Source: Octopus vulgaris (lineage: Eukaryota). Taken from it: a stretch of DNA of 64,000 nucleotides. The first letter of the stretch is position 1. Each line of letters begins with the position of its first letter. A model generated the notes under the pieces. That model did not search any database and had not been told where the DNA came from. It saw nothing but the letters and a program-made list of their open reading frames with translations. Positions 6,165-50,690 of the stretch are shown piece after piece. The stretch lies in contig OX597828.1 in NCBI GenBank assembly GCA_951406725.2, positions 71,424,001 to 71,488,000 on the forward strand. The letters run 5' to 3'. The position numbers were made by a program, and so were the translations under genes.

Positions 6165-6455
6165 ATGGAAATAATAAAGAGTCCGTTTGGAACAGATATG
6201 ATCATTTTCAGAGATTATATTTATAGAAAAGATAAAGCCAAGTTGAATACCATGTACTGGCGATGTGTTAAAACGAATTGTAAAGGGAGATTGGTGAGCA
6301 TTCTGGATTATAAAGAAAAAAACGTGGAAGAAATTCAACTGAAGGTCAGAGGTCAGCATTCTCATCCTCCTGATCCTGTGGATGTGAAAGCAAGGAAAGC
6401 ATTAATTGAAGCGAAGTCAATTTTGAACTGCCACGAACTACCCAGAAACGAAAAG
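6165..6455 (+). CDS. Cassette exon 1: FLYWCH zinc-finger protein N-terminus (97 aa), phase-0 donor
   Basis: MEIIKSPFGTDMIIFRDYIYRKDK..MYWRCVKTNCKGRL..HSH fits the FLYWCH pattern. In-frame TAA at 6093 upstream. Ends AAG|GTAACC at a codon boundary. Confidence 0.8.
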
Positions 6456-9232
6456 GTAACCGTCATTCGACTTAAATATTGACTTAAAAACTTTCGAAAT
6501 ATATTTCAGCTTCAAAATGATGTTTATTTATTTTGTCTTTATTTACAAAACATTTTTTTATTTATAAAGTATATATTTAATAGCTGAATATGTATATCTG
6601 ATAGACACACTCTCAACTATTTCTCTCTCTGTCTGTCTGCCGGTCAAATCGGTAGAAAGTTACAAAAGTGACTCTGGGGCCGACATTTTCGGGCAAACAC
6701 ATTCTCCAACCGACTTTAAATCTGAGTTTGTTTCTTTTTTGTCAATCGAATCATATATTCTTTTGCTGTTGGTGAACTGCAGCCTTCCTATGAAACCTAG
6801 TGACTTCTATAGTTTGGAACTAAGTATATCGATCTGTATTTGTAGAACCGGTTTAACAACAGCGATTTGGTTTTGAAAACCCTTGTAAACATTAACCACG
6901 CACACACATTTTCAATTTTTTTTTTTTACATATATACCGTCTGTTAAATTCCATCATTATAGTTGAGTAGAGCCCCGTGTAATGTGCCGCGCAGTGAGAT
7001 CGAACCCCAAATCTCGGTGTTGCAAAGCGAACTTTGTAACTAAACGGCCATAAATGCATATGGGCGGAGGTAAAGAATACGCGCCCCACCCGTTTTCGGT
7101 GTAACCCAAACCGCCGAAAACGGGTGGTGTATACTATTTATCTTTTACTTGTTTCAGTCATTAGACTGCGGCCATGCTGGAGTACCGCCTCCAAGAATTT
7201 CTTGTCGAACGAGTCAGACGCTTTCGGAAATTCCCGATGTGAATTTTCCGAGGCCTCTCCCCCATTCCCGTGCGCGCATTTTTTCCTATTCGTTTAGAGG
7301 AAGTTGTTTTACACCTATTACACACGTTTTTTTGTTTGTTTATATACGATGGGCTTCTTTCAGTTTCCATCTACCAAATCCACTCACAAGGCTTTGGTCG
7401 GCCCAAGGCTATAGTAGAAGGCACTTGTCCAGAGTGTCACGCAGTGGGATTGACCCCAGAGCCACGTGGTTGGGAAACTAAATTCTTACCATGTGAATTT
7501 TCCGAGTCCCCACCCCCGTTCGCGAGCGCGCATTTTTTTTCATATTCGTTTAGAGCAAATTGTTTTACACGTATACTATTTTTCTTTTGTTCTTTTTTGC
7601 TCGGGTCAAACGCTTTAGTTTAACCTGAAAGGCTTTTATAAGTCAATACTGTATCCTACTGTTTGTGGTGTTAGCAGTGCTATATATAGTTGTTTACAAG
7701 ACAGTGATTGTTGGTACCAAGTTCTATTCAAGTCCAGGCCCCTAAGGACAGTTGGTTCTTGTAAACAACTGTCCTTAGACAAAAGACTGACTTTTCATTG
7801 ACCAGTGTTTACTCATCCCATCTTCTGGTGTGGAGGATTTCCCGCTCCTTGGTACCAACAAGTTCTTATTCATTTCAGTCGTAGATACACAAGCGTTAAG
7901 TTGTCTGTCTATCTCTCCACATCTCTGTCCGTCCGTCCGTCTATCCATCCCAAAAATTGGTATTTTTTAATGAAATACCATTCAGACTGCATAAATTACG
8001 ATGATATCGGAATTTAATGTGGAAAAAAAAAATGTTAGGCACACACACGTACATACTGTTATACTCGTCATATTTATTACAGAATCTTGAAATTCTGAAC
8101 ACATAATGTGTGTGTGTTAGTATGTATGTGTTCACACCAACCTGTTTTTTTCCCTCTTTCACATTGAATCCTGATATGATCGTAATCTATACACACGCAC
8201 GCACATGAAGTCTGTTTTTTGGCCATCGTGTCTCGTCACTTGTCGCGATTATTTCCTTCAGGAGGTTTCCCAATTTCTTGAAATCAGCTCTCTTCGTCCA
8301 CTTTCCCCTTATATTTTCCCATTTTGCAGGTTCCTTCCATTGGAATCACTTGCCAATATTCTAACCAGGCGCCACCCCGTTCCACACACATCACATGTCA
8401 CAGAACCAGTGCAGGCTTCTCTCTTGCACGTTACATCTGATTCCATGAACCAACGCCGTAGCCTCTATATAGTCACTCGACGCGCTAGAAACAGCAGCCA
8501 AATCTCTCTCAAATTAACATCGTTAGCATCCTAAAAGATCGAACATCTTGATTAATGGAGTCTTGGGTTCCTTGCTTATAGGAAAATTACTGGATGGTCA
8601 CGGTTGGAATGTCCGTGATCATTGGTTTGTTCAACCAGGGCTTACATAGGACTATAAACCATAACATTCAATTAGTCTTTCCCTGACCCGTTATTCACTT
8701 TCTCTGTAATGTCACCGTACTGGTGTTTATAAGAAATACAGATTTTATCGCATGTAATCCTTTCTCGGACAGATATATCCATCAGAATGGTCGAATTTGT
8801 TTCCGCCTTAAATAATTCCAATCTCGTGGAAACATGCCATTTGTAATAACAATATCTTTTCTTTCTGAAAAGAATTATTTTTAATTCCTTTTGTTGTTCA
8901 AGGTCTGCGATATCTGCTCCTGTATCAGTTATTATTAAATCAACAGCTATTTATTAACAGAGTTTTAAATATCATTCACAACAGATGGATTGACTTAGCT
9001 TCCTGAATGAGGAACTGCCTGGTAACACCAAGAATGTCCTTTTTATATGCATTAATAAGAGAACATTTACGTGGTAAATATTCTTTAAAACCCATTTTGA
9101 CGTACGCGATTATTCTGCCAGTGTTTCCATTTGATTGTGGATGATATACAGAGGTGTTTTCGTAGGTCTACACCCAGTTTTAACGAAGCCAGATGCTCGA
9201 GTTTATTAATTATGAAATTCACAGACATTGCC

Positions 9233-9520
9233 AGGAAATCCGCCAACTTATCGCCGCCGATTCAGCGCGGAGTCAAGTTAGCGGTAAACTAACTCATCGC
9301 CCCAATTAACTTACTTTAAAAAACTGAAATTCACAGAGGTGAAATGGAATGGAAAAAAATACCTTTATTTAAAGAAATGGAATGTTAATTAAAATATCCT
9401 ATTTTACTAAAGTATAAATGTTTAAATCACTGGTTCGCTACTAATTCATCGCCGCCAATTCATCGCGAGCCAAGTCGTCGCTAACCAAACTCATCACCGA
9501 ACCACTTCATTATCAAACCA
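9233..9520 (+). repeat. Two blocks of short tandem (c/a)attcatcgcc-like motifs; possible MULE terminal-repeat remnant upstream of cassette 2
   Basis: aacttatcgccgccgattcagcgcg...aactcatcgcc (9233-9305) and aattcatcgccgccaattcatcgcg...aactcatcacc (9432-9520). Confidence 0.45.
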
Positions 9521-9691
9521 AAATAATTACTAATCAGACTAAATTAACAAATTACAAGTTAGCTAATTGTCAATTTAAATGTGACAGCGTTTACTTATTT
9601 ACTGTTCGACGCTGGCAACTTCGGTTCATGCAATTAATTTAGAACTGTTTGAGCTACGGTTGCTTAAATTTCCCAAGGAGGCCCCTTCACA

Positions 9692-10000
9692 ATGGAACGT
9701 GTTTTCAGTCAGCGAGGCAAAGAGAAGTTCTCACACGATGGCTATTTGTTTATATTTGATAAATTTAGTAGGACCGACACTGACTTGATGTTTTGGCGCT
9801 GTGAATTAATCGGCAGATGTAAAGCAAGAATTCACACAAAATTTGGCGATGTTGTGAAATTTATGAATACTCACACACATGATTGTTCACCAATAAAGGA
9901 AGTAGTACAAATGGCCAGAAAAACGAAAAGCTGCTCTCGGAAGTCAATGGAAAGTCCAAATATAGTAATTGATGAAATATTGGGCAGTGTTTTCCGACCG
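9692..10000 (+). CDS. Cassette exon 2: FLYWCH zinc finger resembling a MULE transposase N-terminus (103 aa), phase-0 donor
   Basis: SQRGKEKFSHDGYLFIFDK..FWRCELIGRCKARIHT..HTH. In-frame TAA at 9665. Ends CCG|GTAAGC at a codon boundary. Confidence 0.85.
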
Positions 10001-10829
10001 GTAAGCACTTAAAATAAGCATTTTTCCTTCTATATTTCTATGTACATAATAATAATTCTTTCTAATTTTGGCTCAAGGCCAGCAATTTTGAGAGGAAGAG
10101 AAAGTCAGTTATATCGATCCCAGCGTTAAGCTGGTACTTCATTTTATCGACCCAAAAGGGATGGAAGGCAAACATTGATTTCGGCAGGATTTGAACTCAG
10201 AGCGTAGAGAGCCAGAAGAAATACTGCTAAGTACTTATGTCGGATGCGCTAACAATTCTGCCAGATCACTGTCTTAATAATATATATATTTTTTTTTTAA
10301 TAGCAATTAAGCATAAATTAAATGAGTGGGAATTGAACCGGTATGTTAAATTAAGGCACTGTGACTCTCCACGTACAACAAAGTTTGTTTCAACACACGA
10401 ATTCACACAAGGAATCTTGCAAACCAGATACAAAACATTTTATTATTTTGAATAAATTTGTTTTCATTTCCAGTGGAATAATTTGAATAATTTCAGTATT
10501 TAAGTGTGAAGTGATGAAATGGTTTGTGAAAAACTTGCTCGGCGCTGACAAGTTTTCCACGAATAGTCGTCTCAGTTTGTTTTCATACACAAAATGCTCC
10601 AAGAATGTCATTTCTGAAAGAAATACAGTTCTTCATAGCTCCTTAACTCATTCTCTTTCTTTATCCTTTATTCTTAATACTTAATTCACCCAGAGTATCA
10701 GTAGCGTAGCTTGGGGTAGAGTGAGCCGCCCCTGGCGACGCTTTTCGGAAGGGGAGAGAAGAAACAATTTTGGGGATGACCTTCCTAATACTAGCAACTT
10801 TACAGATATATATATATATATATATATAT

Positions 10830-11303
10830 GGGTTCTCCTGCTTGTGTGGCATGGTCCAGAGTCCTGTTGTCAGGTATAGGGTCTTCCAGCAGTCACCTTG
10901 ACCCAGGGCAGCACTTCCTCCTCCAGGCACTTGAGGTAGGCCTCCGTGTTGAGTGCGAGGCCGTGTTAGAAGATAAATGGAAGCATGTGTCATCACTGGT
11001 GATCAATCCAAACACCTGGATGTTGACTGGATGTTTGATTTTTATCACTCTTGGTACATGTCCTCAGATTGATACCCAGACACTCTGAAATGTTCATATT
11101 GGAGCTTCTGGCTTGAATGCCATGCACTACAACATGTTGTTTCCAAAATTCTGGCTGAGTGAATTGTGTCATGGTGCTGTTTCTCTCACAGACGGTGCCC
11201 AACTGACCCTACTGTACTGTGTAATCGACAAAATCAAAAACAAACAATGCACATGCTCAAAATTAAAAATATAAAATGGCAACAATTTACCCATCACACC
11301 CTG
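10830..11303 (-). mobile_element. Degenerate Tc1/mariner-type transposon fragment
   Basis: Terminus TA|CAGGGTG on the minus strand (ccctg|ta at 11299-11305). Decayed transposase-like sequence around 10835-10880 (QQD.GPCHT-like on the minus strand). Confidence 0.55.
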
Positions 11304-11309
11304 TATGTG

Positions 11310-11347
<38 letters not shown>

Positions 11348-12079
11348 AGTATACACAAAACATAAAGAAGAATGAATAATTATACATCTTCAAAAATTGT
11401 TTATTACAGCATTATCCCTATTTTGGGAATAATGCTGTAAAATCCATATTGGTATCAAAATCTATACCAGCCCCCGTTCCAAAGGTCCCAGCTATCCCGT
11501 CTAAATTCAAGGGCACACAGCTATTTAACACCTTGCTAAAATACCTGAGGGATCTTCATTGAGTAGGGGAGATGTTTTCAAGAAACAACTTGAGCTCCTG
11601 CTATCCAAACTTTGGATATTAACTTAAATCAAGGCAGGAACCTCAAAAGAGGGCAGCAGTGTTGAACTCCCTCCTTCAGCAAAAGTCAATCACATATGAT
11701 TGGCCATTGAAAGGGCTGAAAGGTATAAAAGAATTCAAAGAATTTACTTCCAATCCAATACGTGTTTCAGGTGCATTTAGTTGGTTCAGGCGCAGTAAGT
11801 ATTCATCCAAGGTAAACCATTCCCATGTAGTTTTGTCCATGTTCAAAGAACATGGATACAAACTGTTAACACCCAATTTTATTTCTCTTTTTAATATTTG
11901 ATAAGATGGATACCATCAAAACCGGTTATATTTTAAACCACTCACAAAAATATTAAACATTCTCTAAAATATACTTTTGTGCCTTTTCCAACTTTATTTA
12001 CTTTTTTATCCAAAATTTTTGATTTGTATGAACTCTTAGCCCCTTTTCAACTATATATATATATATATATATATATGAC

Positions 12080-12325
12080 TCCTGTGCAGGTGGCACATAG
12101 CATGGTCATAGCCAGTACCGCCTGACTGGCCCTCGTGCTGGTGGCACATAAAAGCATCCACTACATTTGCAGAGTGGTTGGCGTTAGGAAGGGTATCCAG
12201 CTGTAGAAACTATGCCAGATCAGACTGGAGCCTGGTGCAGCCATCTGGTTCGCCAGTCCTCAGTCAAATCGTCCAACCCATGCTAGCATGGAAAGCGGAC
12301 GTTAAACGATGATGATGATGATGAT
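12080..12325 (+). mobile_element. Retroposon family B (ggttggcgttaggaagggcatccagctgtagaaac...ggacgttaaac(GAT)n)
   Basis: Same conserved body and (GAT)n tail as copies at 19265-19752, 21495-21970, 23635-23990, 41345-41435, 43730-43862, 45010-45340(-), 59350-59530 and 63800-63925. Confidence 0.8.
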
Positions 12326-12339
12326 AATTGGGGGAGAGG

Positions 12340-12620
12340 GATTATCACCCAGATATCCAATTAAGTTATACAAGAAGGAATCATTCCTAATAACTGGTAT
12401 TGCAGTATCATCATAAACAGCTATCAAGGTAAAGGAGATGTCTTAGAGAGAAGTAACTATTTAGGAATCAGATTATGAAGGTCATGGAGAGAGTTAGAGC
12501 TCAATTGATTTGTGACAAGATTGAGCTAGATGAGATGTTGTATGGCTTCATATCCAGAAAAATACCACAAATGTAATCTTCCTAATGAGGCAACAGTAGG
12601 TGAAATGTTTGGCTCAGAGC
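12340..12620 (+). pseudogene. Decayed LINE reverse-transcriptase fragment
   Basis: Remnant IP..W..SIII.SYQGKGDVLERSNY.GI-like translation with stops. Confidence 0.55.
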
Positions 12621-13204
12621 ACAGTAATAGCTTACTTTATGGGGACCCACTCTACGAGACCCTGGGTTTACGAGCTTTATTTTATTATAAATTTTTCTAG
12701 GACAAGATCCAAATTTTGAATCAAGTGCAAATGTTTCTACTACCATAACAAGTGCTTCTGCATATTACTGAGAAATTTATTGAGAGCGAATAAAAGCTTC
12801 TTCTAAGCAAACAACTCTACACTTGATTTTTAAGAAAGAGATCTACAAGTCTGTCTATGAGTGCTTGTGAATCTGCAATCACATCTCCAAGTGATGGTGT
12901 GCATGTGTCTAGTGCGAGTGAAAGTGGTTCAGAAAATGGTTATAATAATATTTTTAATTATAAGTGGTCTTGACATTCTTTTTGCTTTATATAAAATGAT
13001 CTTTACATTCTACTGTTATTCTATTGCCATTTATTTACGAGTATTATAAATTTTACAGGTAAAATATTTTTCTGGGAACGAATTGCGATTTATAACATTG
13101 CTACTATGGGAAATTATTGCTCTGTTTTACGAGTTTTTGCTTTAAAAGTGACCTCCAGGGTCAAATTAACTTGAATATTGAGGCATTGCTGCGTGTGCGC
13201 GCGT

Positions 13205-13330
13205 GTGGTGTCACTGATTTTTTCCCAGTCGCATTTTCCCAGCCGACATTTCCTAGTCACATTTTCGTAGCCGACATTTCTCGACAGCAGTTTTTCTCCC
13301 AGCAAAACTACTTTAGACAATATTTTCCGT
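13205..13330 (+). repeat. Tandem (c)gacatttccc-like motifs; possible MULE terminal-repeat remnant upstream of cassette 3
   Basis: gtcgcattttcccagccgacatttcctagtcacattttcgtagccgacatttctcgacag. A related motif occurs at 6680-6715. Confidence 0.45.
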
Positions 13331-13638
13331 TTTTGTTTGCAATAATTCTATGAAAATTATAATTAAACACAAGTAATCAATAAGGAAATGGATTACATGA
13401 CGGGAAATGTTTTTTCGTTATGTTTAATTAAGGCTGTAAATTAATTATTTTCACTGTAAAAAGGTTATCAAACAATTAACTTCACAATTTCTCTTTATAA
13501 AATCGTCAGAAGATTTAGAAATAATAGCGATAAATACTATCAAGTTATAAAGTTTGGTTCTTTTAGTATTTGCTTCCAGGAATATTCGAGAAATGTTCGT
13601 TTGCTATAATTAAGTATTAACAAATTTTATGCTGGAAT

Positions 13639-14001
13639 ATGGACAACAGCATTTCATATATCTCGAGTATCAGAGGCAAGGAAAAAGCTTGCAACAACGG
13701 CTATGTCTATGGGTTCGACAAGAGAAGCAAGCTGGACAACCAGCTGTTCTTTTACTTATGCGAGAGACAAAGATACGAGCAATGTCCAGCGAGGATCCAT
13801 GTGAAACACGACACGGTGGTCAAACGCATGCATCTACACAACCATGTTCCGAACAGACCAAGGAAAAAAACCTTGAAAATAGCTTCTGGGATCAGAAGTC
13901 ATGCGGCCGTGGCCGCGGCGGACCCGATGATGAATGCCATCGTGGCAAACAGGACAACCAATATACCACCAGCCTCTCTTGCAGCAGCAATGAGACCAAA
14001 T
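13639..14001 (+). CDS. Cassette exon 3: FLYWCH zinc finger plus Ala-rich linker (121 aa), probable phase-0 donor
   Basis: SIRGKEKACNNGYVYGFDK..FFYLCERQRYEQCPARIHV..HNH. In-frame TAA at 13618. Ends AAT|GTAGGT. An alternative phase-1 donor TAG|GTACAA lies 4 nt downstream. Confidence 0.78.
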
Positions 14002-14124
14002 GTAGGTACAACCGTTTACTTTGCCTGTTCATCTACATATAGAAACCCCCCCCCCATATATATAAGAAAAAAACACTTTCTTGAAATGTATCCGGTACTT
14101 TCGGTACCTATACCGAAGTTACGC

Positions 14125-14174
<50 letters not shown>

Positions 14175-14324
14175 TCAATAATAATATAGGGTGAAATCAA
14201 TTAATTTGGAGTAATCATTAATTTCACCAAGTAGATTTATTCGGTGTGTGGTGAGGCAAATCGTTGCTAAACCCTTAATTACTTAGTATATATATATATA
14301 TAATGTCTTTTTGTTGAGATAGAC

Positions 14325-14515
14325 CAGTGCTTTTCAACCTTTTTGCTGGAACGGAACCCCAAGAAAACATTTCACAGGCTCGAGGAACCCCTGTGCAATA
14401 ATTTAATTGTCTTATCTGCACAGGAGAATTAAAAATTACTGTCGATTTTAGCATTTTTGTAACTTCTTGCGGAACCCCTGGACTGTCCTGGCAAAACCCT
14501 GGTTGAAAACCCCTG
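14325..14515. mobile_element. hAT (Charlie-like) MITE
   Basis: TIRs cagtgcttttcaacc / ggttgaaaacccctg. 8-bp TSD agatagac/atatagac (1 mismatch). Confidence 0.75.
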
Positions 14516-15023
14516 ATATAGACACACACGTACGCAGATGTGTTTATATATACATACATGTGCGTGCGGCTGTGGTGGTCTCTCTTGGCTGGGATATCGA
14601 TCGCTGGGAAAAGCGGCTGGGAAATGCTTTACATTGTGTGTGTGTGTGAACATTTTATATTGTCGAGAGAGATTCTTGGTCTTGGCATAACCGGTCTGGT
14701 TTTCTTTTAGAGTGTATCCTAGTTTTTCCTGACTTTATAGACTAACTGATCACACACGCGCACGCAAAGGTGTGTGTGTGCGTATATAATTTCATTTACG
14801 TACCTGGAAATTCTACGAACAAATTCTGTTCATCGTTTCAATATTAATATATATATATGTGTGTGTGTGTGCTTGTGTGTATATATACATGTATGTGTGC
14901 GCGCGAGTGTGTATGTGTATACGAGTTCCTTTTTATGTGTTCGTTTGTGAGTGCTTGCATCGACGTTACTCTGTATATATGAGTGTGTGTGTGTTTCGTT
15001 TTACATCCGTTTTTCCACAGTAG

Positions 15024-15059
<36 letters not shown>

Positions 15060-15075
15060 CATAACTTTATTAATA

Positions 15076-15774
15076 CAGTCAACTCTCGCGCTACTTTGCC
15101 AGTTTTGCGCGGTCCCGCTCAAATAATTAACAAAAGATTTTTTACTATGCCACCTTCAACTCTCGCTACTATGTCACTTGTAAACTGAAGCGCACGCAAC
15201 TTTTCGAAATTTTGTACATTTCATATTTGTAATCTTGTGGAAAAGTTCAGAAAGTGGCACACAATGTCAGCTCCGAAACGCAAGCGGACTGAGTTTACGC
15301 TGAAGGAAAAGAAGGAGATTATCGATGCAGCGAAAAACGAGCCGAACCAGTCTAAGCTGGCTAGAGACATGAGCAAGAAATGGGGCATCGAAGTGAAGAG
15401 GACCACGGTGAAGGGCATTCTCAACAGAAAGGATGCAATCGAGGCAGCCATCAACGTTGGAATTCCATGGAAGTGCACGAAGCTGACGCAATCTCACAAC
15501 CCGAAGCTCGATGATGGCGGGCTAATGTGGCTGAAACAAGCAAGAGGACAGAATCTGCCGGTCAGTGGTGATCTTTTGAAGGAGAACTTAATAAACTTGG
15601 AAGTCTTCTTTTTACCATTGCATTGAACTTCTTATTGGCCTTACTTCCTACCCTGTGAATTTTTATTCGTATGTTCAGTAAATTTTTGGTTATGTAGTGT
15701 TTAGATAACAGACCCTCGGTACTATGCCACTTTGGCTCAGTCCCGCAGGGTGACATAGTAGCGAGAGTTGACTG
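15076..15774 (+). mobile_element. Internally deleted Tigger/pogo DNA transposon
   Basis: TA|cagtcaactctcgc...gcgagagttgactg|TA TIRs with TA TSD. Repeated subterminal tactatg(c/t)cac motifs. Encodes a CENP-B-type HTH. Confidence 0.9.
15264..15626 (+). CDS. Truncated Tigger/pogo transposase: intact N-terminal HTH (psq/CENP-B-like) DNA-binding region, no DDE domain
   Basis: MSAPKRKRTEFTLKEKKEII..QSKLAR..RTTVKGILNRK..LDDGGLMWLKQARGQNLPVSGDLLKE. Possible phase-0 cryptic donor CCG|GTCAGT at 15560/15561. Confidence 0.65.
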   Translation: MSAPKRKRTEFTLKEKKEIIDAAKNEPNQSKLARDMSKKWGIEVKRTTVKGILNRKDAIEAAINVGIPWKCTKLTQSHNPKLDDGGLMWLKQARGQNLPVSGDLLKENLINLEVFFLPLH

Positions 15775-15858
15775 TAGTGACTTCGAATACCACTTTCAAG
15801 TGTGTGTATATTTTTATATGACTACGTGTATGTGTTATGCATGTGTGCATATATATGT

Positions 15859-15891
<33 letters not shown>

Positions 15892-16096
15892 ATATATATA
15901 TACGCACAGATGCGCACGTTCTCAAGCATATATATATGTGTGTGTGTGTGTGCTTGAGTATGTGCACATAAGTGTGTGTATAGCTTATTTAAAGCAACTT
16001 CAATAAGTCAGTTCTATATTTAAGAGACGAGGAATTATGTACATTATTTACATTATTTACATTTGATGGATATTTGTCCTCATCTTGTTTGTTGTT

Positions 16097-16142
16097 AACA
16101 CAACGTTTCGGCTGATATACCCTCCAGCCTTCATCAGGTGTC
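16097..16142 (-). ncRNA. Minimal type I hammerhead ribozyme motif (Penelope-type)
   Basis: Minus strand GACAC-CUGAUGA-a-GGCUG(gagggtatat)CAGCC-GAAAC-GUU-GUGUU: intact core, stems I and II, and a palindromic minimal stem III. Confidence 0.65.
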
Positions 16143-16161
16143 TTGGGGAAATTTCGAACCT

Positions 16162-16233
16162 GGCATATGGCGTAGTGGTTAAGAGCATGGACTACTAACC
16201 CCAAGATTCCGAGTTCGATTCCAGGCAGTGACC
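16162..16233 (+). mobile_element. tRNA-derived head (Pol III A and B boxes)
   Basis: TGGCGTAGTGG (A box) and GAGTTCGATTCC (B box), followed by (AAT)n. The acceptor stem does not pair well. Confidence 0.6.
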
Positions 16234-16328
16234 TGAATAATAATAATAATAATAATAACAATAATAATAATAATAACAACATCGAAAAATACCTTCGGAA
16301 TGAGAACCCTGGTTCGAAATTTCCCCAA

Positions 16329-16374
16329 GACACCTGATAAAGGCTGGAGGGTATACCAGCCGAAACGTTGTGTT
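16329..16374 (+). ncRNA. Second hammerhead motif, probably inactive (core CUGAUAA, G8A)
   Basis: gacac-ctgataa-aggctggagggtataccagcc-gaaacgttgtgtt. Confidence 0.5.
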
Positions 16375-17389
16375 AACAACAAACAAGATGAGGACAAATA
16401 TCTGTCAATTGTAAATAATGAACTTCAATAAGCCATGCAACGAGTAAAACTTTGAATTCACTGTCTGTAAAGTCATTTAAAAATTTTGGTGTCTGCATTT
16501 GTATTGTTTTCCATTTAGTTAATTCCTCCTCTTCCTCCTCCTCCTCCTCCTCATCATCATCATCAAGATGATCACCACCATCATCACTTTGCGTTTATTT
16601 TCCATTCTGGCATTGATTGGACTGTTCATTCTGGTTTGAGTCAGTTCTTATTTGGAGATACTGACCCCATAGATGGGTTGAAGAACAACATCTCACTTTG
16701 TTGTCTCACTTTTGATTTGGTTTCTATGTTTCTATGCCCTCTCTAAAACCAACAGCTTGATAGTGTGTATTTAGGCATATTTCCTCATGACAGCAACTCT
16801 AAGGATGTTACCTGGCCCTCAATAAGATCTGTCTTCTTTCAACTCTATATTTGTCTTTGTTCAGTTGGCCAGCCATTCTACACGGGGTACCAGGTGCTTT
16901 ATTTCATGTCACTAACATTTTGAGGTTACTTACAATACCAAAAAGCTTCCACAACCATGGTTCCAGGTTCATTTCTACTACATGGCACCTTCATCAAATG
17001 TCTTCTGCTATGATCCTAAGCAAATTAAGTATTTGTGAGTAGATTTGTGTGGGTCAGCCACAATTTGAAGAAGCAGATTTTTTTTCATGGCCAGATACTC
17101 TTCTTTCTATCACTTCTCACCCGATTCAAAGCAGGTAATACTTTTTTTTTTCTAGTTCAGACATGGTTGTAAATGGAAAATTGCAAACAAATGATACTGT
17201 TGTATAATGGGATTGAACCTGCAATCACTTGGTTGTGAAATGTAACACTTAACCATACAGCCATGACAGCACCTCTCTGTCTCTGTCTCTCTCTTTCTCT
17301 TACATACACGTTCTTTCTCTTTTCCTCCCTCATCTCTCTCTGTATATGTTTCTGGAATGTGAGGAAATATTTCTTTCATATTTTTGCAG

Positions 17390-17488
17390 AATGCTAACTA
17401 CGGCACCAGAAAGAAACTAAGCAAATCTTCAAGAGCAAAACCCATTTCTGACTTGGATCCTTTCAGTTCTGAAGTTAGTAAAGTAAAG
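17390..17488 (+). CDS. Internal micro-exon A (33 aa, phase 0/0)
   Basis: ttctttcatatttttgcag| NANYGTRKKLSKSSRAKPISDLDPFSSEVSKVK |gtaagc. 99 nt, open frame. Confidence 0.7.
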
Positions 17489-17675
17489 GTAAGCAAAAAT
17501 ATACGATATAGGTTAGGTGTGTGTGTGTGTGTGTAGGGGTGCAATGGGTTGTTGTTTTGACACAGTGAGTTGAGAGAAATTTGGCTGCTCTTTTTAGCGT
17601 ACTGAATAACTATGTAGGGGGTCTCCCTATTGTCTTGTGTTACAACTGGTTGATAACGAGTTGGGGTAGTTGACA

Positions 17676-18160
17676 GAAGATTGAGGTAGATGACTGAAGA
17701 CTGAGGTAGGTGACACTGTAGTAGATGACTAAAGTTTGTGGTAGATGACAGATTGTGGTAGATGCCTGGAGATTGAGGCTGATGACAGAAGATTGAAGTA
17801 GATGATAGAGAATTGGGATAAATAACTGAAGATTGAGATAGATGACAGAAGATTCTGTTAGTTGACTGAAGATTAAGGTAGAAGACAGAAGAATGAGATA
17901 GTTAACAGAAGATTGAGTTATATGACATAAGATTGAGGTAGATGACTGAAGATTGAGGTAGATGACTGAAGATTGAGGTAGATGACTGAAGACTGAAGTA
18001 GATGACTGAAGATTGAGGTAGATGACTGAAGATTGAGGTAGATGACTGAAGATTGTGGTAGATGACTGAAGATTGAGGTAGATGACTGAAGATTGTGGTA
18101 GATAGCAGAAAATTGAGGTAGGTGACTGACAATTGTTGTAGATGACTGAAGATTGAGATT
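17676..18160. repeat. 20-bp minisatellite (gatgactgaagattgaggta)n, roughly two dozen copies
   Basis: Direct tandem repeats, most homogeneous at 17930-18100. Confidence 0.95.
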
Positions 18161-18207: not shown

Positions 18208-18324
18208 CAATATAGTCATTTCAACCGAAGAAAGAAAGTGACCAAATGTCCAAGAGTGGAAAATATAGAAATGTTGTCCACCCCTGTCGCGGCTCCCTTC
18301 ATTCATGAAGTCACTGAATTCAAG
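18208..18324 (+). CDS. Internal micro-exon B (39 aa, phase 0/0), paralogue of exon A
   Basis: tttctaatatatttcag| QYSHFNRRKKVTKCPRVENIEMLSTPVAAPFIHEVTEFK |gtaagc. 117 nt, open frame. Confidence 0.7.
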
Positions 18325-18464: not shown

Positions 18465-18892
18465 TGTCAGGCACGTGGAAGAGAGTGTAATTCGGCAGGA
18501 GGACTTAAACGACATGCAAAGGTACATGAAGCCCAGTTACAACTACAGCCGGCTATTACCAGTAAAGGTCTTAGTTGCCAATTCTGTACAAGACATTGTA
18601 GATCTTTAGCTGGGCTAAAAAGTCACATTCGATCACAGCACCAGTAACAGTTAAGCTTCGTGCAATGGCCATACTCGATAACGAGGGGGGCAGCCATAAT
18701 GTATGTATGTATGTGTATATATGTATGTGTATATATACTACAGCCGGCTATTACCAGTAAAGGTTTTAGGTGCCAATTTTGTACAAGACGTAGATCTTTG
18801 GCTGGGCCAAAAAGTCACATTCGATCACAGCACCAGTAACAGTTAAGCTTCATGCAATGGCCATACTCGATAACGAGGGGGCAGCCATCATG
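18465..18892 (+). mobile_element. RTE-type LINE 3' end, locally duplicated
   Basis: C-terminal CQFCTRHCRSLAGLKSHIRSQH, then a short 3' UTR and (ATGT)n tail. 18542-18700 is repeated at 18738-18892. Confidence 0.65.
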
Positions 18893-21800
18893 TATAGTAT
18901 ACTATCTGTGTGTATGTATGGTATAGTATGTATGTATGTGTGTGCATGCGTACATATGTATGTATATATGTAAAATATAACCGGTGTGTATATGATGAGA
19001 ACACTAATTTATAATTATCACTCAGTGTCAGGACATTTGCATTGCATGGTATATTGGACTAATTGCTTCTGTTATAAACTTACATGTCCATATGAACGAA
19101 TGGTTCTTAACCTGGGTTGTAGTGTCCAGTTGTGGGCATTGTGGGATCACAAGATGGTAGCAAATGCCTAATGGGAACTGGATGTTTAGGCAAGTTGTGA
19201 ATGTTCTCAGAAACAAAATGTTTCAACTCAGTGGAATCCTTTTATTTTAAATATCAATAAAAAATCATTGGAAATTGTAGCTCTGATACCAGTGCCGGTG
19301 GCACGTAAAAGCACCTTCCGAACGTGGCCGATGCCAGCGCCACCTTGACTGGCTTCTGTGCCAGTGGCACATGACCTGCTGTGCTTGAGGAGACCTATTG
19401 AGTCAAGTACATCAACATCAAAATAAATATCAAATGGAAATTGTAGTTGTGATACCTGTGCCGGTGGCACGTAAAAGAACCATCTGAACATGGCCGTTGC
19501 CAGTGCCACCTCAACTGGCCTCTGTGCTGGTGGCACGTAAAAAGTACCAACTGATTGTGGCCGCTGCCAGCCTCGCCTGGCACGTAAAAAGCACCCACTA
19601 CACTCATGGAGTGGTTGGCGTTAGGAAGGGCATCCAGCTGTAGAAACACTGCCAGATCAGACTGGGCCTGGTGTAGCCTCCTGGCTTCCAAGACCACGGT
19701 CGAACCGTCCAACCCATGCTAGCATGGAAAGCGGACATTAAATGATGATGATATTACAAAAATAAAGCAGAAGTCTGTCAGGATTAGAATGTAAGTTAGA
19801 CATTGTGTTATCGGTGAGTAGAAACTTGACTGATGATGTGATAAGGTGTGTAACATCACTGCTTTAGTCCTCACTTTGATAATTTCTGTTAATAAATTCA
19901 ACATGGTGCCACTTGTCCTTGCAAATGTCGAAAAAGAGGCTCCTGTTTGAGGGTTTAACGAAACCACTCAGTGCAAAATTAGCTACTGTTAGGTTACGGT
20001 GATATCCATGTGAATGCCATTTGTTGAAAGACGGTGATGAGATACAGGAGAGAACCACCGTAGAAAGTATGATGGACTTAAAATGATATTGAATATCCTT
20101 ATAGAAATGATTCTTTTCTTGAAAACTGGTGGAAGTCTGTAAAGTGACTGAACAATTGTGTCCACCGATTAAATAAAACAAAGGGGAGGTGGTGGCAGTG
20201 CCGTTTTCAGGCATGGAAACCTAGAACAGTTGCTCGGGGGCCACACCACTCTAGGCACCCAGTTCTGATCTACGTACGAGAGTGGTTCTCAGCCATTTTT
20301 TGCCCATAGATCACTTTGATTCCCATTTTACTCTGCAAGATCGAAATAAACATTTGTTTTTTTTAAAACAGTCCCATTATATTTTCATAATTAAATATCA
20401 TTAGGACTTATATAAAAAAAATTTTTAATATTTTGTAGAAGTAAAACCAGTTTTTATTGCACATGAATTTTAACAGCAAAATCTTATGTAAACCCCAAGA
20501 AGAGCCATGTGGACAGCGTATATTGTATGCTGTCAATAAGTAAATAGTATGAGGCCTATAATCCTGTTAAGACTGCTCTGGGTGGTGGTGGTGGTCGTGA
20601 AATAGAAATGATTATTTCCACCTTCCGGCTGAATGTGTCTCTCCGTAGTTATGTCCCTTTATTTTCTCGCCAACTTCGATATTCGTAGTAAAAAAAAAAA
20701 TCAATAATACGAGATACCAGTCTTATACTGAGGATATAATTTATTGACTTTAGCTTTTAGCACTAGAATAGCTTCAATTTACAGTACTGATTAATGTTAT
20801 AAATGGAATCGCACATAATCTGATCGAAGAAATTCTTGCATATATGCAAACGTTGGGTGAGGATGCAGTTTCCAGTTTCAAAAACCAATTTATCATCGAT
20901 CTTTCACTTTGGGACATTAAACTGCTTTTAAAAAATATTTAAATAAATTTCATGACCGTCTCCAAGCACTTGATGTAGACCTCCATGTTGAGTCTGAAGC
21001 CGTATGTATGTATATATACATATAGGTGCATGTATATATATGTCAGGTCACTCTGACATATATATGTCAGAGCGACTGGTAACATGTAGCTCAGTACAAC
21101 CTGTTGCCTGGTTGGGCCATTGGCAAATAAACTTGCAATATTACAAATCCTGCTTGGTGAGTCAGGTGGTTTTTGAACACCTTGTAGGATGAAAAACAAG
21201 CCCTGTCAAAGGGTGGGACTTAAAAATGACCGGTTTGGTACCAATGAGCACATTTAACCTACCGAGGTGGGTTAGACTCTAATCCATGGCAAAAGCAAAT
21301 AACCCAGAAGATGAAGAACTCAAGTCGAAAAGCCTGAGGTATGTTGTTTGTTGAGTCTGTGGCAATAATTTGTACCAAATTCCTGCCATCTGCATTTCCA
21401 AAAAGTGTGGTTGGTCCTACACAAGCCTTCACCACTTGAAATAAATCATCTGTTGTGTGGTCTGACAGCTAGGCTGTTGGACTCTCTTATTTCATGAGGG
21501 TGATCGTTGACAGAGCGGCTAACCGGCTTCCGTGCCCATGGCACATAAGAGGGCACCATTCGAGTGTGATCGTTACCAATGTTGCCTTACTGGCACTTGT
21601 GCCCGTGCTAGTAGGGTGTCAAGAGCACCATCCGAGCATGATCGTTGCCAGAGCAGCCAACTGGCTTCCGTACCTGTGGCACGTAAAAGGGCACCATTCG
21701 AGCGTGATCGTTACCAACGTCGCCTTACTGGCACGTGTAAAAAGATTCGAGCGAGGTCGTTGCCAGTACCACCTGACTGGCCCCGTGCTGTTGGCACGTA

Positions 21801-31318: not shown

Positions 31319-34012
31319 GGTACTTGTCAATTGTCGTGGTCCCGGTTTTGCACACGCGAATTCGCGCGTGCGCGCGCGCCAGACGTAGGTACTCGATACT
31401 CGAGATCCTACGAGGTGACTTGCGCATGCGCAGTGCAGAATTCGCGCGTGCGCGTTAAACCCCCCCCCTAAAAAAAAAGGTGTTGGATTTCACTAAAAAT
31501 ATATGTGTGTGTGTGTGTGTGTGTGTATATATAACATTTTCAATTTTACACAAAAAAATTACATAGTCGCTTTCCTCGCGGATTTACAGAGAAATGAATT
31601 AATTACTATTTTACAGAATAAAATTAATGAATTAATTATATAAATTAAATAATTCTTGAAAATTAATTAATATTAATAATATTTTTTGAACAAAGTAAAT
31701 AATTTATAAAACTTGGTTAATAATTTTTTTTACACAAACGCGAACGTATATAATTTGTGAAACTTTTTTTTTTACAGACGTATATAATTTGGTAAACTTA
31801 ATGAATTAATTTCTTCTCATCATCATCATCGTTTAACGTCCGTTCTCCATGCCAGCATGGGTTGGACGGTTCGACCGGGGATCTGGGAAGCCAGAAGGCT
31901 GCACCAGACTCCAGTCTTATCTGGCAATGTTTCTACAGCTGGATGCCCTTCCTAACGCCAACCACTCCGAGAGTGTAGTGGGTGCTTTTACATGCCACCC
32001 GCACAGGTGCCAGGCGAGGCTGGCAACGGCCACGGTCGGATTGGTGCCAGTCGAGGCGGCTCTGGCATCGGCCACGATTCGGATAGTGCTTTTTACGTAC
32101 CACCAGTCCAGGGGTCCTGGCATTTGCCGGGTGCCACACTTGCCCCAACATGTCTTCGCAAGCAAAGGGGGTTGGCATGGGTGCCTGTCGTGGGATGAGG
32201 TTCGATATCAACTTCGCTTGCCTCAACAGGTCTTTGTGTATAAATGTATAAATTTTTCGCACTAAATTCTTTCCGTAGAATTTATAAAAAAACGCGCAAA
32301 ATTATTCCGTAGACTTTATCAAATTAAAAAACGCAAAATTAATATATTTTTTGAAATTGCAAATTATTTAGAATATAAAACAAATTAAGTTAAATTTTAA
32401 AAATAAATGTCATATACTTATACTCTGTAAGGTGCTGTGTTCACACTTCAATTTACTATTTTCTAGAAATGTTGCTTTTCTAATTGAAACAATTTTTCTC
32501 AATCTCCATTTAAAAGTCCATAATGCCTCTTGAGCCATATCAAAATGAACAACTTTGAATTACCCGGGGTGTGGTGGTGGTGGTGGTGTGAGGTTCTAAT
32601 TTTTTTTCTGATCTCTCTTTGCCCCCTCTTTATCTCAGTTGTTCATTCAGCTAATATTTAGAAAAATTTTCGCGCCCAATTTTTGTTGTCGCGGGAAAAG
32701 ATGAACGATTTAAAATAAATATATCTTAATTGTAGTGTGAGAAAGTATATATATTCTGATGACAAAATATATTATCTTTCAAAAACATCCCAAATTTATA
32801 GACTATATCGTGTAGGCTTAAGAAATATATATATATATATATATATATAGATATAGATATATATATACATATATAGTAGAGAATGAAACATCTTTCATCT
32901 GTCTCCCCACCACACCTCCATCTAGGGGGGCAAAGAGAGATCAGAAAAAAAAATTAGAACCTCACACCACCACCACCGGGTAATTCAAAGTTGTTCATTT
33001 TGATATGGCTCAAGAGGCATTATGGACTTTTAAATGGAGATTGAGAAAAATTGTTTCAATTAGAAAAGCAACATTTCTAGAAAATAGTAAATTGAAGTGT
33101 GAACACAGCACCTTACAGAGTATAAGTATATGACATTTATTTTTAAAATTTAACTTAATTTGTTTTATATTCTAAATAATTTGCAATTTCAAAAAATATA
33201 TTAATTTTGCGTTTTTTAATTTGATAAAGTCTACGGAATAATTTTGCGCGTTTTTTTATAAATTCTACGGAAAGAATTTAGTGCGAAAAATTTATACATT
33301 TATACACAAAGACCTGTTGAGGCAAGCGAAGTTGATATCGAACCTCATCCCACGACAGGCACCCATGCCAACCCCCTTTGCTTGCGAAGACATGTTGGGG
33401 CAAGTGTGGCACCCGGCAAATGCCAGGACCCCTGGACTGGTGGTACGTAAAAAGCACTATCCGAATCGTGGCCGATGCCAGAGCCGCCTCGACTGGCACC
33501 AATCCGACCGTGGCCGTTGCCAGCCTCTCCTGGCACCTGTGCGGGTGGCATGTAAAAAGCACCCACTACACTCTCGGAGTGGTTGGCGTTAGGAAGGGCA
33601 TCCAGCTGTAGAAACATTGCCAGATAAGACTGGAGTCTGGTGCAGCCTTCTGGCTTCCCAGATCCCCGGTCGAACCGTCCAACCCATGCTGGCATGGAGA
33701 ACGGACGTTAAACGATGATGATGATGAGAAGAAATTAATTCATTAAGTTTACCAAATTATATACGTCTGTAAAAAAAAAAAAGTTTCACAAATTATATAC
33801 GTTCGCGTTTGTGTAAAAAAAATTATTAACCAAGTTTTATAAATTATTTACTTTGTTCAAAAAATATTATTAATATTAATTAATTTTCAAGAATTATTTA
33901 ATTTATATAATTAATTCATTAATTTTATTCTGTAAAATAGTAATTAATTCATTTCTCTGTAAATCCGCGAGGAAAGCGACTATGTAATTTTTTTGTGTAA
34001 AATTGAAAATGT

Positions 34013-39515: not shown

Positions 39516-39548
<33 letters not shown>

Positions 39549-43208: not shown

Positions 43209-43253
<45 letters not shown>

Positions 43254-45348: not shown

Positions 45349-45383
<35 letters not shown>

Positions 45384-45910
45384 CACATACATACAGTTTT
45401 GTCTATCCTGATTGCATTGTGAAACCTCTTTATCTGTCTGTGTGCCCCTCTGTATATATTAGTTAATCGTCTTCAGCGCTTAGCTGTTTAGGATCCGATC
45501 CTTGTGTGATTTGAACCCTGGAAATAAAGAGACAAAACGAAATACTACCTATCTATTTTGTCATCCGCTCTCGTAATTCTTTATCCATACACCACCACCA
45601 TAACAGTTTCTAACACTTACACGGCGAGTTTACGTCATTTTGGTGGCGGGAAAGTCGATTAAACCGACCTCAGTAGGATAAATGATAAAAAAAAAAGATA
45701 TTGCAGTATTTAACACCAGGGCTTTGTTATATACCACTTGTTTATGTTCTTGCTTCTAGAGGCCACTACAAGTTTTTGTATCAGGAAGGACTTTTCCGCC
45801 GTAAAAGCCTCTTTCTTACCAGCATAGGAAACAAATGAACGCAAAACTGATCACGATGACCCTCTTTCCCCCAGATCCCTGTCTAGGTTACCATCAGATA
45901 TATACGAGAT

Positions 45911-46339
45911 CAGTGGTTCCCAACCTGTGGTCCGCTTAGGTAACACTGGGGGTCTGTGAACTAAATTTAAAATTTCATAGAGAGATAGAGAGAAAGGGAT
46001 AGAGATAGGCGCAGGAGTGACTGTGTGGTAAGAAACTTTCTTTCCAATCACATGATTCCACGTTCAATCCCACTGCGTGGCATATTGGGCTAATGTCTTT
46101 TCTGCTATAGCCTCGGCCCGATTAAAGCCTTGTGAGTAGATTTGGTACCCGGAAACTAAAAGAAGCTGATCGTATATATGTGTGTGTGCGTGTATCTGTC
46201 CCCCACCATCGCTTGACAACCGATGTCAGTATGTTTTCGTCCCCGTAACTTAGCGGTTCGGCAATAGATAACGATTAAGTCATGGGGGTCGATTTGTTCG
46301 TCTAAAGGCGATGTTCAAATGACTGAAACAAGAAAAAAA

Positions 46340-46411
<72 letters not shown>

Positions 46412-46560
46412 TATATATATATATACACTATATATATATATATATACACTATATATACACACACAAACACACAAAAGGATAAGCATATTAAAAGGGGTCC
46501 GTGGGAAAACTCATCTAAATAAAAGGGGTCCTTGGTAGTGAAAAGGTTGGGGAACCACTG
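45911..46560. mobile_element. hAT-type MITE with nested family C SINE
   Basis: TIRs cagtggttcccaacct / aggttggggaaccactg. A SINE and (TA)n are inserted inside. Confidence 0.65.
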
Positions 46561-48770: not shown

Positions 48771-48804
<34 letters not shown>

Positions 48805-49300
48805 CGAAGCGATGAAGCTAGAAAGAGTTGTGTGTGAAGTAGGTTTGCTGTTGGTAGTTAGGCAGCTGCTGTCTGCTTGCTTGTTCTACTTTTCTCTTGA
48901 AAACCAACCTACCACCATCAGCAGCCTGCTGTTTGTTGTTGTTTACAGTTAAACTGCTTGTCGATATAACAACCCTGTTGTTAGGCTTACTCAGAGAGGG
49001 GCGGCAGTCAGTTGTTGGTGGCTAGCTACACTCAGTACACATCGATTTACTGCAGTCTGACCTAAATCGACCATCACACAGAACGGTAAACAACGCACCA
49101 CAAGCTCGAGAACATTCGCTGAACGCAGTTTAATACACATGTACTCAAGTTGTGATTTGGTTAGAACATCTCAGCGCCCAGCTTCTCTTCTTCTGCTCAT
49201 ATAAAACCAAGCGATATTCTGTCTAATGTCTCATGTCTGCTCTTATTTGAACAGTTTAGTCGTGGTTTAGCCGTTTTTTTTCCCTCACTTCTCTGCACAG

Positions 49301-49367
49301 ACTCGTGTAACAATTTTCATTTGATATATTAAAACCAGTCGAAAGTTTTTGATGTCGAATCTCTCAG
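49301..49367 (+). other. Candidate non-coding 5'-UTR exon of cassette 5
   Basis: Strong acceptor tttttttttccctcacttctctgcacag| and donor CAG|GTAAAT. Contains a stop codon. Possible next acceptor ctttgtatag| at 49490. Confidence 0.35.
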
Positions 49368-49514
49368 GTAAATCTTATTTCACAACTTGACACAACAAGC
49401 TAAGCTTATTACTGTGTTAATCGGATTAAACAGTTTTTTTTTCTGGTTGGCAACGTGGCTGACGCACAACTGCAAAGAAGCTTTGTATAGAGAGTCTCTG
49501 TTGTGACATCCAAA

Positions 49515-50690
49515 ATGGCCGACCCTCCGTTCGTTGGAGACCTCAATACATCTGCTGTAGATGGTGGTTTGTACCTCACAACAGCGTTGAACAACGAAGA
49601 ATTTGAAGGTTTATTAACGAAAGACTCAAAGTCCAGTCAACAGGCTGAGAAATACGCGGTGTTGAAATTCCGTCACTATCTGACCAAGCGAGGTGAACCA
49701 TTGTCTTTGGAGAATTTGTCCTACCATGTGACCAGCGGTGACATGCCTGCCAAGGAGCGACTGCTTACCTACCTGACAACCTTCTTTAACGATCTCAGAC
49801 GGACTGATGGCAGCAAATATAAATTCAATGCCCTCAGAAGTATTCGTTACGCCTTAAATCGCTTTACTTTGAAGTTTGGAGTTGATTTTCTCAACGATGC
49901 CTATTTGAAAAAACCATTAAATGATGCATGGGTGGCGTTAGGCGAATGCCTGAAGCTGGAAGGGAAAGCCGATGTCCAGCATCACGATATTCTATCGTTG
50001 GAAGAAGTTAAGAAAGCATATGCCTGGTGTAATCAAAATCTTTCCGATCCTGATCGACTCCAAAAGAGAGTTTTTATGGATATTTACCTCTACTTTGGAC
50101 GCCAGTGCCGACAGAATTTACCACACCTGACCAAAGATAATTTCGGCATGGACGTCGATGCCAACAACCAGCGTTATGTTTACTTTATCGACAAAACCGG
50201 CGACACAACCCGTAAAAGCAACACCCAGTTAGTGATGAAAGAACGCGTAGGATTTGCTAATTGTCCCGTAAAGATGTTCCTGAAATATGTTTCCAAATTA
50301 GACCCACATTACCCGCGATTCTTCTGCCATCAAAAGCTAAACGTTGACCCGCTCTACCACACGGTTTGGTATACAAAACAGCCGATGGGCGAGAAGAGAA
50401 TGGCCGAGTTTATGAAATCCATTTCGAACGACGCCGGTTTGTCTAAAGTTTACACAAACCATTGTTTGCGTTCCACGCTGCTCTATCTGATGGAAGAAGG
50501 TGGGTTGGATGCTAAGGATGTCAGTCGAATAACTTGTAGTCAATCATCTCACGAAGTATCCATACCCGAGGTCCCTTCACCAGCACAACGTCCCTTACAA
50601 ACACCACATGCCGCCGCCGCCACTACAAACACGTGGCCCTCCTCACATTCTGGCACCTCACTTCACTCTCGGAATAAAAAATCATCTCAG
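49515..50690 (+). CDS. Cassette exon 5: second Crypton-derived DUF3504-like domain (392 aa), phase-0 donor
   Basis: FFNDLRRTDGSKYKFNALRSIRYALNR..LQKRVFMDIYLYFGRQCRQNL..CPVKMF..YVSKL..VWYTKQPMGEKRMAEFMKSIS..YTNHCLRST. Context aaaATGG. In-frame TAG at 49488. Ends CAG|GTAAGT, a perfect donor at a codon boundary. Confidence 0.88.

Follow-up and report, generated by a model that had tools for sequence, protein, structure and literature searches.

Comparison of a 64,000-nt stretch of the Octopus vulgaris genome (C15:71424001-71488000; hereafter the window) with public gene models revealed that it holds the 5' half of a BTB gene, the O. vulgaris orthologue of LOC115220336 and LOC106879774, whose protein receives alternative N-termini from transposase-derived exons. 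An earlier note on this DNA had singled out five open reading frames (ORFs), here called cassettes 1 to 5, and each of them does begin with ATG, stay open over a length divisible by three and end immediately before a GT (GTAACC, GTAAGC, GTAGGT, GTGAGT and GTAAGT, respectively), with an in-frame stop shortly 5' of the ATG (ending 69, 24, 18, 33 and 24 nt before it, and starting 72 to 21 nt before it). In the public gene models of three Octopus species, each of the five ORFs is an alternative N-terminus of one BTB protein, and the models use exactly the five proposed phase-0 donors, including that of cassette 3 at 14001, which had been called ambiguous and at which probable RNA contigs end as well. 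The argument once built on the five matching phases, (1/3)^4, is weak alone, as the donors were chosen afterwards, and is superseded by isoform models using all five.

A query with cassette 2 among longer proteins retrieved O. bimaculoides LOC106879774 isoform X4, which joins FLYWCH to BTB, and the isoform cluster of this gene has members from three Octopus species with variation confined to the N-terminus (15 of its 16 members listed). A query with the constant part yielded isoforms of 911 and 897 aa starting with cassettes 4 and 5 in all three Octopus species, and also a model from Sepia in which a DUF3504-like fragment precedes the orthologous BTB region (68% identity). Five O. vulgaris isoform models agree with the concatenated genomic exons without mismatch, and the O. 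sinensis CENP-B isoform differs from the O. vulgaris exons at five positions. The spliced models in three species rule out that the five ORFs are independent single-exon genes; a protein search with cassette 5 restricted to 215-686 aa returned one stand-alone match, with the fused isoform lying outside that length window, and is no evidence for a stand-alone ORF. According to the gene models, and to contig ends for four donors, each cassette has its own ATG, one N-terminal transposase module, a phase-0 donor and an in-frame splice to shared exons.

The shared exons are arranged in two tiers (Table 1). Cassettes 1, 2, 3 and a further one, 3b, are spliced to exons A-B and then to C-D-E, whereas cassettes 4 and 5, located 3' of exon B, are spliced to C-D-E directly. 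Instead of the single common downstream acceptor that had been expected, there are therefore two, at exon A (17390) and at exon C just past the window end. The acceptors of exons A, B and C are all in phase 0, and therefore any phase-0 donor reads through. The shared C-terminal region carries a BTB domain (PF00651, Pfam) common to all long isoforms, as predicted from the analogy with Drosophila mod(mdg4), and the BTB lies 3' of the cassettes, so that the proposed reversal of mod(mdg4) polarity holds, as does the view of one locus with transposase-derived modules from unrelated superfamilies as interchangeable N-termini. The array of five, all real, was incomplete, since a sixth cassette (CENP-B_N, 15264-15560) and an exon without a domain (17087-17134) had been missed, and the statement that each cassette encodes a different domain was too strong, there being three FLYWCH (28-45% mutual identity) and two DUF3504 (30%) modules. 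The suggested look at flanking DNA did locate the constant exons past the window, but profiles of 12 domain families yielded no further cassettes in the window introns, in the 66 kb preceding cassette 1 or 3' of the gene. Exon C contains a repeated Q-Q-A-E-F-[MI]-E-A-Q-K unit, the copy number of which varies among O. bimaculoides models (P0026 vs P0027, P0029 vs P0032).

Table 1. Exons and associated elements of the BTB locus and the split finger of its paralogue (window numbering unless otherwise marked).
Feature	Position	Strand	Remarks
Variable exon 1, FLYWCH zinc finger	6165-6455	+	Pfam; isoforms P0005, P0006, P0012; 0 mismatches to P0006; phase-0 donor to exon A
Variable exon 2, FLYWCH from Mutator-type transposase	9692-10000	+	Pfam; isoforms P0002, P0007, P0008; donor to exon A
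Variable exon 3, FLYWCH	13639-14001	+	Pfam; isoforms P0009, P0014, P0015; donor to exon A
Tigger/pogo-like element, young, internally deleted	15076-15776	+	701 nt; both terminal inverted repeats and TA flanks; hosts variable exon 3b
Variable exon 3b, CENP-B_N helix-turn-helix	15264-15560	+	Pfam above cut-off; O. sinensis isoform X5 (P0010); donor CCG/GTCAGT, phase 0, inside transposase frame
Short alternative 5' exon without domain	17087-17134	+	Candidate in O. vulgaris; 16 codons, phase-0 donor; 80% match to N-terminus of O. bimaculoides isoform X6
Shared exon A, tier 1	17390-17488	+	Phase 0 / phase 0; in all FLYWCH and CENP-B isoforms
Shared exon B, tier 1	18208-18324	+	Phase 0 / phase 0; spliced to exon C past window end
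Variable exon 4, Crypton-type tyrosine-recombinase fold (DUF3504)	28117-29334	+	Isoform X1, 911 aa; spliced directly to exon C
Variable exon 5, DUF3504	49515-50690	+	Isoform X2, 897 aa; spliced directly to exon C
Intron toward constant exons	50691-64000	+	Constant exons beyond window end
Exon C	64365-64666 (L011:365-666), numbering continued past window	+	Phase-0 acceptor common to all isoforms; 365 nt beyond end
Exon D	68626-68767 (L011:4626-4767)	+	With exon E encodes BTB domain and Ser-rich tail
Exon E	77135-78208 (L012:3135-4208)	+	With exon D encodes BTB domain and Ser-rich tail
Split THAP finger (paralogue)	L041:7378-7473 and four exons in L043-L044	minus	Variable exons stop before last zinc ligand; shared exon provides ligand

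Origin of the variable exons

Cassettes 1-3 match Pfam FLYWCH with E values of 7e-10 to 5e-13, above the cut-off. Cassette 2 shares 64% identity over 101 aa with the N-terminus of a shark FLYWCH-MULE protein (P0003), against 45% with cassette 3, and cassette 1 is 28-31% identical to cassettes 2 and 3. Elsewhere in the genome there is a 72% match to window 9494-9786, which takes in part of cassette 2 and 198 nt of its 5' flank, so that this flank probably came along with the transposon. The next best genomic matches at the protein level reach 30-34% for cassette 1 and 44% for cassette 2, nine of 20 genomic FLYWCH matches to the latter containing stops, and cassette 3 matches itself alone in the genome at the DNA level. 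No MULE transposase remnant was found 3' of cassettes 1-3 and no paired terminal repeats around them. Short direct repeats lie 5' of cassettes 2 and 3 (9213-9498 and 13220-13280), and from their resemblance we take them to be possible remnants of transposon ends.

Cassettes 4 and 5 match Pfam DUF3504 with E values of 6e-6 and 1e-6, slightly under the 29.7-bit cut-off. The predicted structure of cassette 4 (pLDDT 84.5) is best matched by the QRICH1-containing Zincore complex on DNA (9hjt, E 1.9e-6), followed by Cre (E 8.6e-6, TM ~0.5); cassette 5 had no PDB sequence match. Both retain H-x-x-R, after which cassette 4 has no Tyr up to its donor and cassette 5 has a single Tyr five residues on and none beyond. 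We take the nucleophile Tyr of the R-H-R-Y tetrad to lie some 30-35 residues past H-x-x-R, and judged from sequence it appears to be missing in both cassettes. Cassette 5 is 77% identical to P0001, which likewise reads Q-V at the donor position, and the next best genomic matches at the protein level are 39% identical for cassette 4 and 42% for cassette 5. As QRICH1-SEPHS1 is called a zinc-finger coregulator in passages of PMC13538652, DUF3504 need perhaps not read DNA sequence alone.

The genome searches for copies of cassettes 1-5, which give lower bounds, found best non-self protein identities of 30-44%, and close copies, terminal repeats and a full transposase, as expected of an active or recently active transposon, were not found for any of the five. 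That the five ORFs are high-copy decaying fragments is rejected on these searches; this description is true only of the element family around cassette 3b. The latter element has copies and terminal repeats but lacks a full transposase. Of 87 candidate sister copies 40 were scored, the best 5' matches being 87-94% identical. All three sister copies examined carry the same GT donor, and all three have stops within the 99 codons that are open in cassette 3b. The splice site of cassette 3b was thus supplied by the transposon. Among the 15 of 16 cluster members listed, cassette 3b is modelled in O. sinensis alone. A transposon source is established for cassettes 2, 3b, 4 and 5, with a pre-existing donor in the case of 3b.

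Conservation of cassettes and shared exons

Identity to O. bimaculoides amounts to 84.5% for cassette 1, 92.2% for cassette 2 (domain 98.5%), 75.8% for cassette 3 (domain 87.1%), 95.6% for cassette 4 and 98.2% for cassette 5, while the constant region stands at 97.6% and exons A and B at 84.7%. Four of the five variants listed in cassettes 2 and 3 are silent (40 of 133 rows listed). By these comparisons cassettes 2, 4 and 5 look constrained, and cassettes 1 and 3 less so.

Related BTB loci in octopus and abalone

The genome contains 23 related BTB exons, twelve in tandem at C3:148.96-149.17 Mb, five at C3:151.27-151.38 Mb and six elsewhere, and in the five examined an intron occurs at the same place, before V-H-K. 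Of the eight best genomic DUF3504 places, seven lie 5' of a related BTB exon on the same strand. The exception, at C24:13.43 Mb (L004, C24:13431640-13432503), is an intact DUF3504 frame of 514 aa with no BTB exon of the family listed nearby, which may be fused to another host gene. When 12 domain-family profiles were run on both strands of 664 kb at four loci, all 44 matches fell on the BTB sense strand and none on the antisense strand; 24 of them are query sequences or their orthologues and hence circular, and 20 (19 ORFs) are independent of the query set.

A much larger array of this kind lies on the minus strand at C3:149174208-149354295 (L039-L050, L071-L077), where 30 transposase-type domain matches occupy 180 kb upstream of the BTB exon C3:149172600. 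The gene corresponds to O. bimaculoides LOC106877732, its shared exons are likewise tiered, and its domains include THAP, DUF3504, CENP-B, Psq, DUF4817, Tc1-type helix-turn-helix (HTH), FLYWCH and others, with a Pfam match in 16 of the 18 ORFs tested. In public models this C3 BTB receives the CENP-B cassette from a distance of 178 kb, and also a THAP cassette. According to a crude donor score devised here, the best-scoring donor is in phase 0 for all 18 cassettes scored in the nearest 62 kb of the array, and among nine cassettes further upstream for four, the other five being in phase 1 and perhaps belonging to another tier.

In four octopus exons of this array the THAP finger ends in C-[ST]-K immediately before the GT, and the shared exon opens with the missing His (H-F-V-G-G). 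The same split is found in the abalone gene Haliotis LOC124116851, with isoforms numbered to X14 and THAP, FLYWCH, MADF or C2H2 N-termini; among the 12 H. rufescens isoforms examined, seven begin with THAP (five of them half-THAPs continued by H-F-V-G-G), while FLYWCH and C2H2 account for two each and MADF for one. Identity between octopus and abalone half-THAPs is 39-58%, compared with 24-47% for five whole octopus THAPs. Since the half-THAPs share both the split and this higher identity, sequence comparison points to a layout that predates the gastropod-cephalopod split. A quick BTB tree (140 of 149 rows, 131 columns) placed the present gene with the cephalopod family (SH-aLRT 99, 29 rows).

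In the tandem BTB clusters at C3:148.96-149.17 and 151.27-151.38 Mb, the members examined have FLYWCH, CENP-B or STPR-like exons of their own in front. Other BTB clades (P0085, P0086, P0089, P0090, P0093, P0097; P0063/P0066/P0082, P0064/P0065 and P0059/P0061) have an N-terminal BTB and variable C-termini of BEN, C2H2 and CENP-B/Brinker types, and are possibly true loci of mod(mdg4)/lola polarity. In P0047, P0193 and P0194 (LOC106872006) a near-whole Tc1-type transposase (DDE_3) is optionally included inside the protein, separating the BTB from an N-terminus of THAP or CG-1 type. A DUF3504 exon (L064:3609-4691) lies 24 kb upstream of the C23 BTB exon, and its cuttlefish-cluster relative P0043 has Tyr residues about 30 positions past H-x-x-R, so that part of a recombinase site may survive.

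Transcript contigs and the first-exon question

Four contig sets were placed on window positions 4100-17600 (32 pieces listed), three of them presumed to be RNA (three runs from three studies) and one of unassigned kind. Contigs of set X1 stop at 6455, 9999, 14001 and 15560 with 12, 28, 12 and 12 unplaced letters, those of set X13 at 6453, 9999 and 14001 with 31, 30 and 30, and those of set X3 at 6455 (12 unplaced letters) and 10000 (none); pieces of set X15 continue through 6455, 10000 and 14001. Allowing for letters common to the cassette ends, we infer that these overhang lengths fit convergence on one exon with 31-letter words, and that exon would be exon A. The junctions which the earlier note proposed to seek in RNA are marked on the donor side at most: probable RNA contigs stop at 6455, 9999/10000, 14001 and 15560, but no cassette-exon A joint is among the 15 of 632 joints listed, in tables crowded by repeats (24 of 3242 loose ends listed).

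Contigs run unbroken along the genome for 194-352 nt 5' of the ATG of cassettes 2 and 3, which favours these two cassettes as first exons, although it is not proof. A separate start site for each cassette is likely, but in competition with a different arrangement, in which the choice falls to splicing and not to the promoter: the cassettes would be second exons, used one at a time after a common non-coding leader, or would be joined by trans-splicing. An acceptor-like site does lie 59 nt 5' of the cassette 3 ATG, but contigs of X1, X3 and X13 cross it, and those over cassette 2 begin at 9438 (X1) and 9498 (X3). The 'MRQ' start of an O. bimaculoides isoform hints at an upstream exon yet to be located, and one X13 contig (window 5829-6141) leaves the genome at 6141, 24 nt before the cassette 1 ATG, with 30 unplaced letters and a GT at 6138, possibly marking a non-coding 5' exon or a variant. 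Against this, cassettes 4 and 5 bypass exons A and B, which is simply explained by internal promoters, and altogether we consider a shared leader unlikely.

Serial capture as the proposed mechanism

These data are best read as serial capture, in which 5' ends of transposons have one after another become exchangeable front ends for a BTB regulator of transcription. The architecture, namely variable transposon-derived 5' exons on a shared BTB core, is close to certain; probably the locus produces several nuclear regulators, each through the choice of one such 5' coding exon, and it is probable that most isoforms act as chromatin or transcription regulators. In the proposed sequence of events, a DNA transposon would insert in sense orientation upstream of a shared exon, and an early donor within the element would remove the catalytic part and fuse the binding module to the BTB core. 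Capture would occur on the 5' side because the DNA-binding module sits at the start of the transposase, near the element's own start. The phase-0 acceptors would ease capture, and useful captures would be retained. Promoter choice would then decide the isoform and hence the DNA sites targeted. BTB domains are known to pair with themselves and to recruit cofactors, and the common core would do both for all isoforms, with those carrying DUF3504 perhaps clamping DNA or partnering zinc-finger factors as QRICH1 does, and not reading sequence alone.

Several observations weigh against serial capture or its parts. The O. vulgaris models are named after O. sinensis models and may be transfers and not independent evidence; the donors at 29334 and 50690 rest on gene models, the contigs covering 4100-17600; and the runs are only guessed to be RNA, in contigs that cannot show start sites and so leave room for a shared non-coding leader, the cassette-exon A joint being absent from those listed, as mentioned above. 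The exon for the 'MRQ' start was not found in window 1-17400. The lower similarity of cassettes 1 and 3 to O. bimaculoides may reflect weak constraint, and in the quick tree the gastropod BTB rows form a separate unresolved clade, so that octopus and gastropod BTB do not make a single supported clade.

A reading compatible with the same architecture is an anti-transposon trap, in which each captured domain would recognise its own donor family, by the ends or by the transposase, and the BTB core would silence or degrade what is bound. The family of the newest cassette has at least 40 scored copies retaining their ends, and many superfamilies are sampled by the C3 array, as a trap would have it; however, the old cassettes are conserved though no close donor copy was found (next best matches 34% and 44% for cassettes 1 and 2, 39% and 42% for cassettes 4 and 5), and the octopus-abalone identity of the half-THAPs suits host targets better. 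As a general account the trap seems improbable to us. Tolerated exonisation, whereby sense insertions are spliced into a permissive gene and annotated while most isoforms are inert, is very improbable: cassette 3b is young and modelled in one species among the cluster members listed, and the constant region changes more slowly than cassettes 1 and 3, but cassettes 2, 4 and 5 are as conserved as that region, domain matches are sense throughout, the frame is broken in all three sister Tigger copies examined, stops occur in genomic FLYWCH matches to cassette 2 and most listed variants in cassettes 2 and 3 are silent; for cassette 3b alone it may still hold.

Serial capture can be extended to a broader picture, which we offer as speculative and doubtful in its entirety. 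Molluscs would keep 'domain trap' BTB loci whose phase-0 shared exons have turned well-placed DNA transposons into DNA-targeting isoforms from before the gastropod-cephalopod split to the present. In the large paralogue THAP fingers would be completed only by splicing, captures would first silence their own family and later become host regulators, and promoter choice together with BTB pairing would constitute a combinatorial transcription-factor code.

Comparison with known systems and significance

Clustered protocadherins and UGT1A likewise splice 5' exons arranged in tandem to one constant set, but their rows arose by duplication of one exon. The octopus cassettes are, in contrast, largely unrelated and captured from outside; three unrelated domain families are present and cassette 2 is nearer to shark FLYWCH-MULE than to its neighbours, and therefore an origin by tandem duplication does not apply. 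The octopus gene further recalls BTB loci of the mod(mdg4) kind, of which lola is another. As passages of PMC1702500 describe it, Drosophila mod(mdg4) is one locus with a constant BTB/POZ and many exchangeable zinc-finger exons, including FLYWCH, but its BTB forms the N-terminus and its variable exons the C-termini; the octopus gene, with this order reversed, works alike but is not a member. Its variable exons are 5', have their own ATG and derive from Mutator, pogo/Tigger and Crypton elements (in the paralogue also from THAP, Tc1/mariner and others). Trans-splicing of variable exons belongs to the mod(mdg4)/lola type; the octopus cassettes all share a strand and are so ordered that cis-splicing could join them.

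A one-exon precedent is given by KCTD1 isoform b, in which a BTB gene gained a long isoform when a single-exon Crypton DUF3504 was inserted ahead of it, and KIAA1958 a/b has two alternative DUF3504 exons in one gene, with no BTB described in the passages concerned (PMC3212892). Compared with the one captured exon of KCTD1, the octopus locus has six cassettes from three superfamilies, and whereas the vertebrate DUF3504 proteins, according to the same passages (PMC3212892), lost the second Arg, cassettes 4 and 5 retain H-x-x-R. More generally, the gene is a host-transposase fusion, with transposase-derived domains spliced in frame to host exons. It resembles KRABINER, SETMAR and CSB-PGBD3 (bioRxiv 10.1101/2020.05.07.082677, in part) in capture by alternative splicing through the transposon's own splice site and in the pairing of a DNA-binding with a host regulatory domain; yet eight of the nine cases traced there use an acceptor ahead of the transposase, whereas the octopus gene uses a donor inside it, repeatedly at one locus, and the term 'BTB' is absent from the available text of that preprint.

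In the available part of PMC10027918, most Octopus THAP and CENPB factors are reported to carry BTB/POZ, but isoform arrays are not recognised, THAP-BTB and CENPB-BTB are counted as separate genes and BTB is taken as a transposon component, the words 'isoform', 'alternative' and 'fusion' being absent from the main text so far as available; array proteins may in part be listed in the supplements of this paper and in PMC12062965 (Table S1). A full-text literature search, with subscription journals largely outside its coverage, found among the papers listed no description of the array and no papers for six locus ids, and the isoforms stand in public annotation as 'uncharacterized'. The parts are already known, KCTD1b as the one-exon precedent, mod(mdg4) as the mirror image and host-transposase fusions as the general process; what is new is an array that has captured transposases of several superfamilies on one BTB core and is itself part of a family.

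Transposase capture is mostly known as single events per gene, and here it is serial and concentrated at one locus. From a young capture with many sister copies through to exons common to octopus and abalone, the array offers a natural time series in which one may follow the change of a transposon domain into a host transcription factor and ask whether it acts first against its own element. It suggests a long-running route from transposons to new gene regulators, in which related mollusc genes repeat the design at larger scale, and is a candidate source of regulatory diversity in cephalopods. The array further suggests that, among the cephalopod 'genes' tallied under THAP, CENP-B, FLYWCH and DUF3504, there are isoforms of a small number of loci.

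Other features of the window

No Rfam match was obtained in the window. The intron between exons A and B contains a 20-nt minisatellite in 25 copies (17661-18157), and a 192-nt tandem duplication follows right after exon B (18542-18925). On the minus strand at 1900-3760 lies what, judged by eye from the translation, is the frameshifted remnant of a LINE-type reverse transcriptase, and two inverted copies of a repeat of about 500 nt stand face to face at 31837-32341 and 33202-33707.

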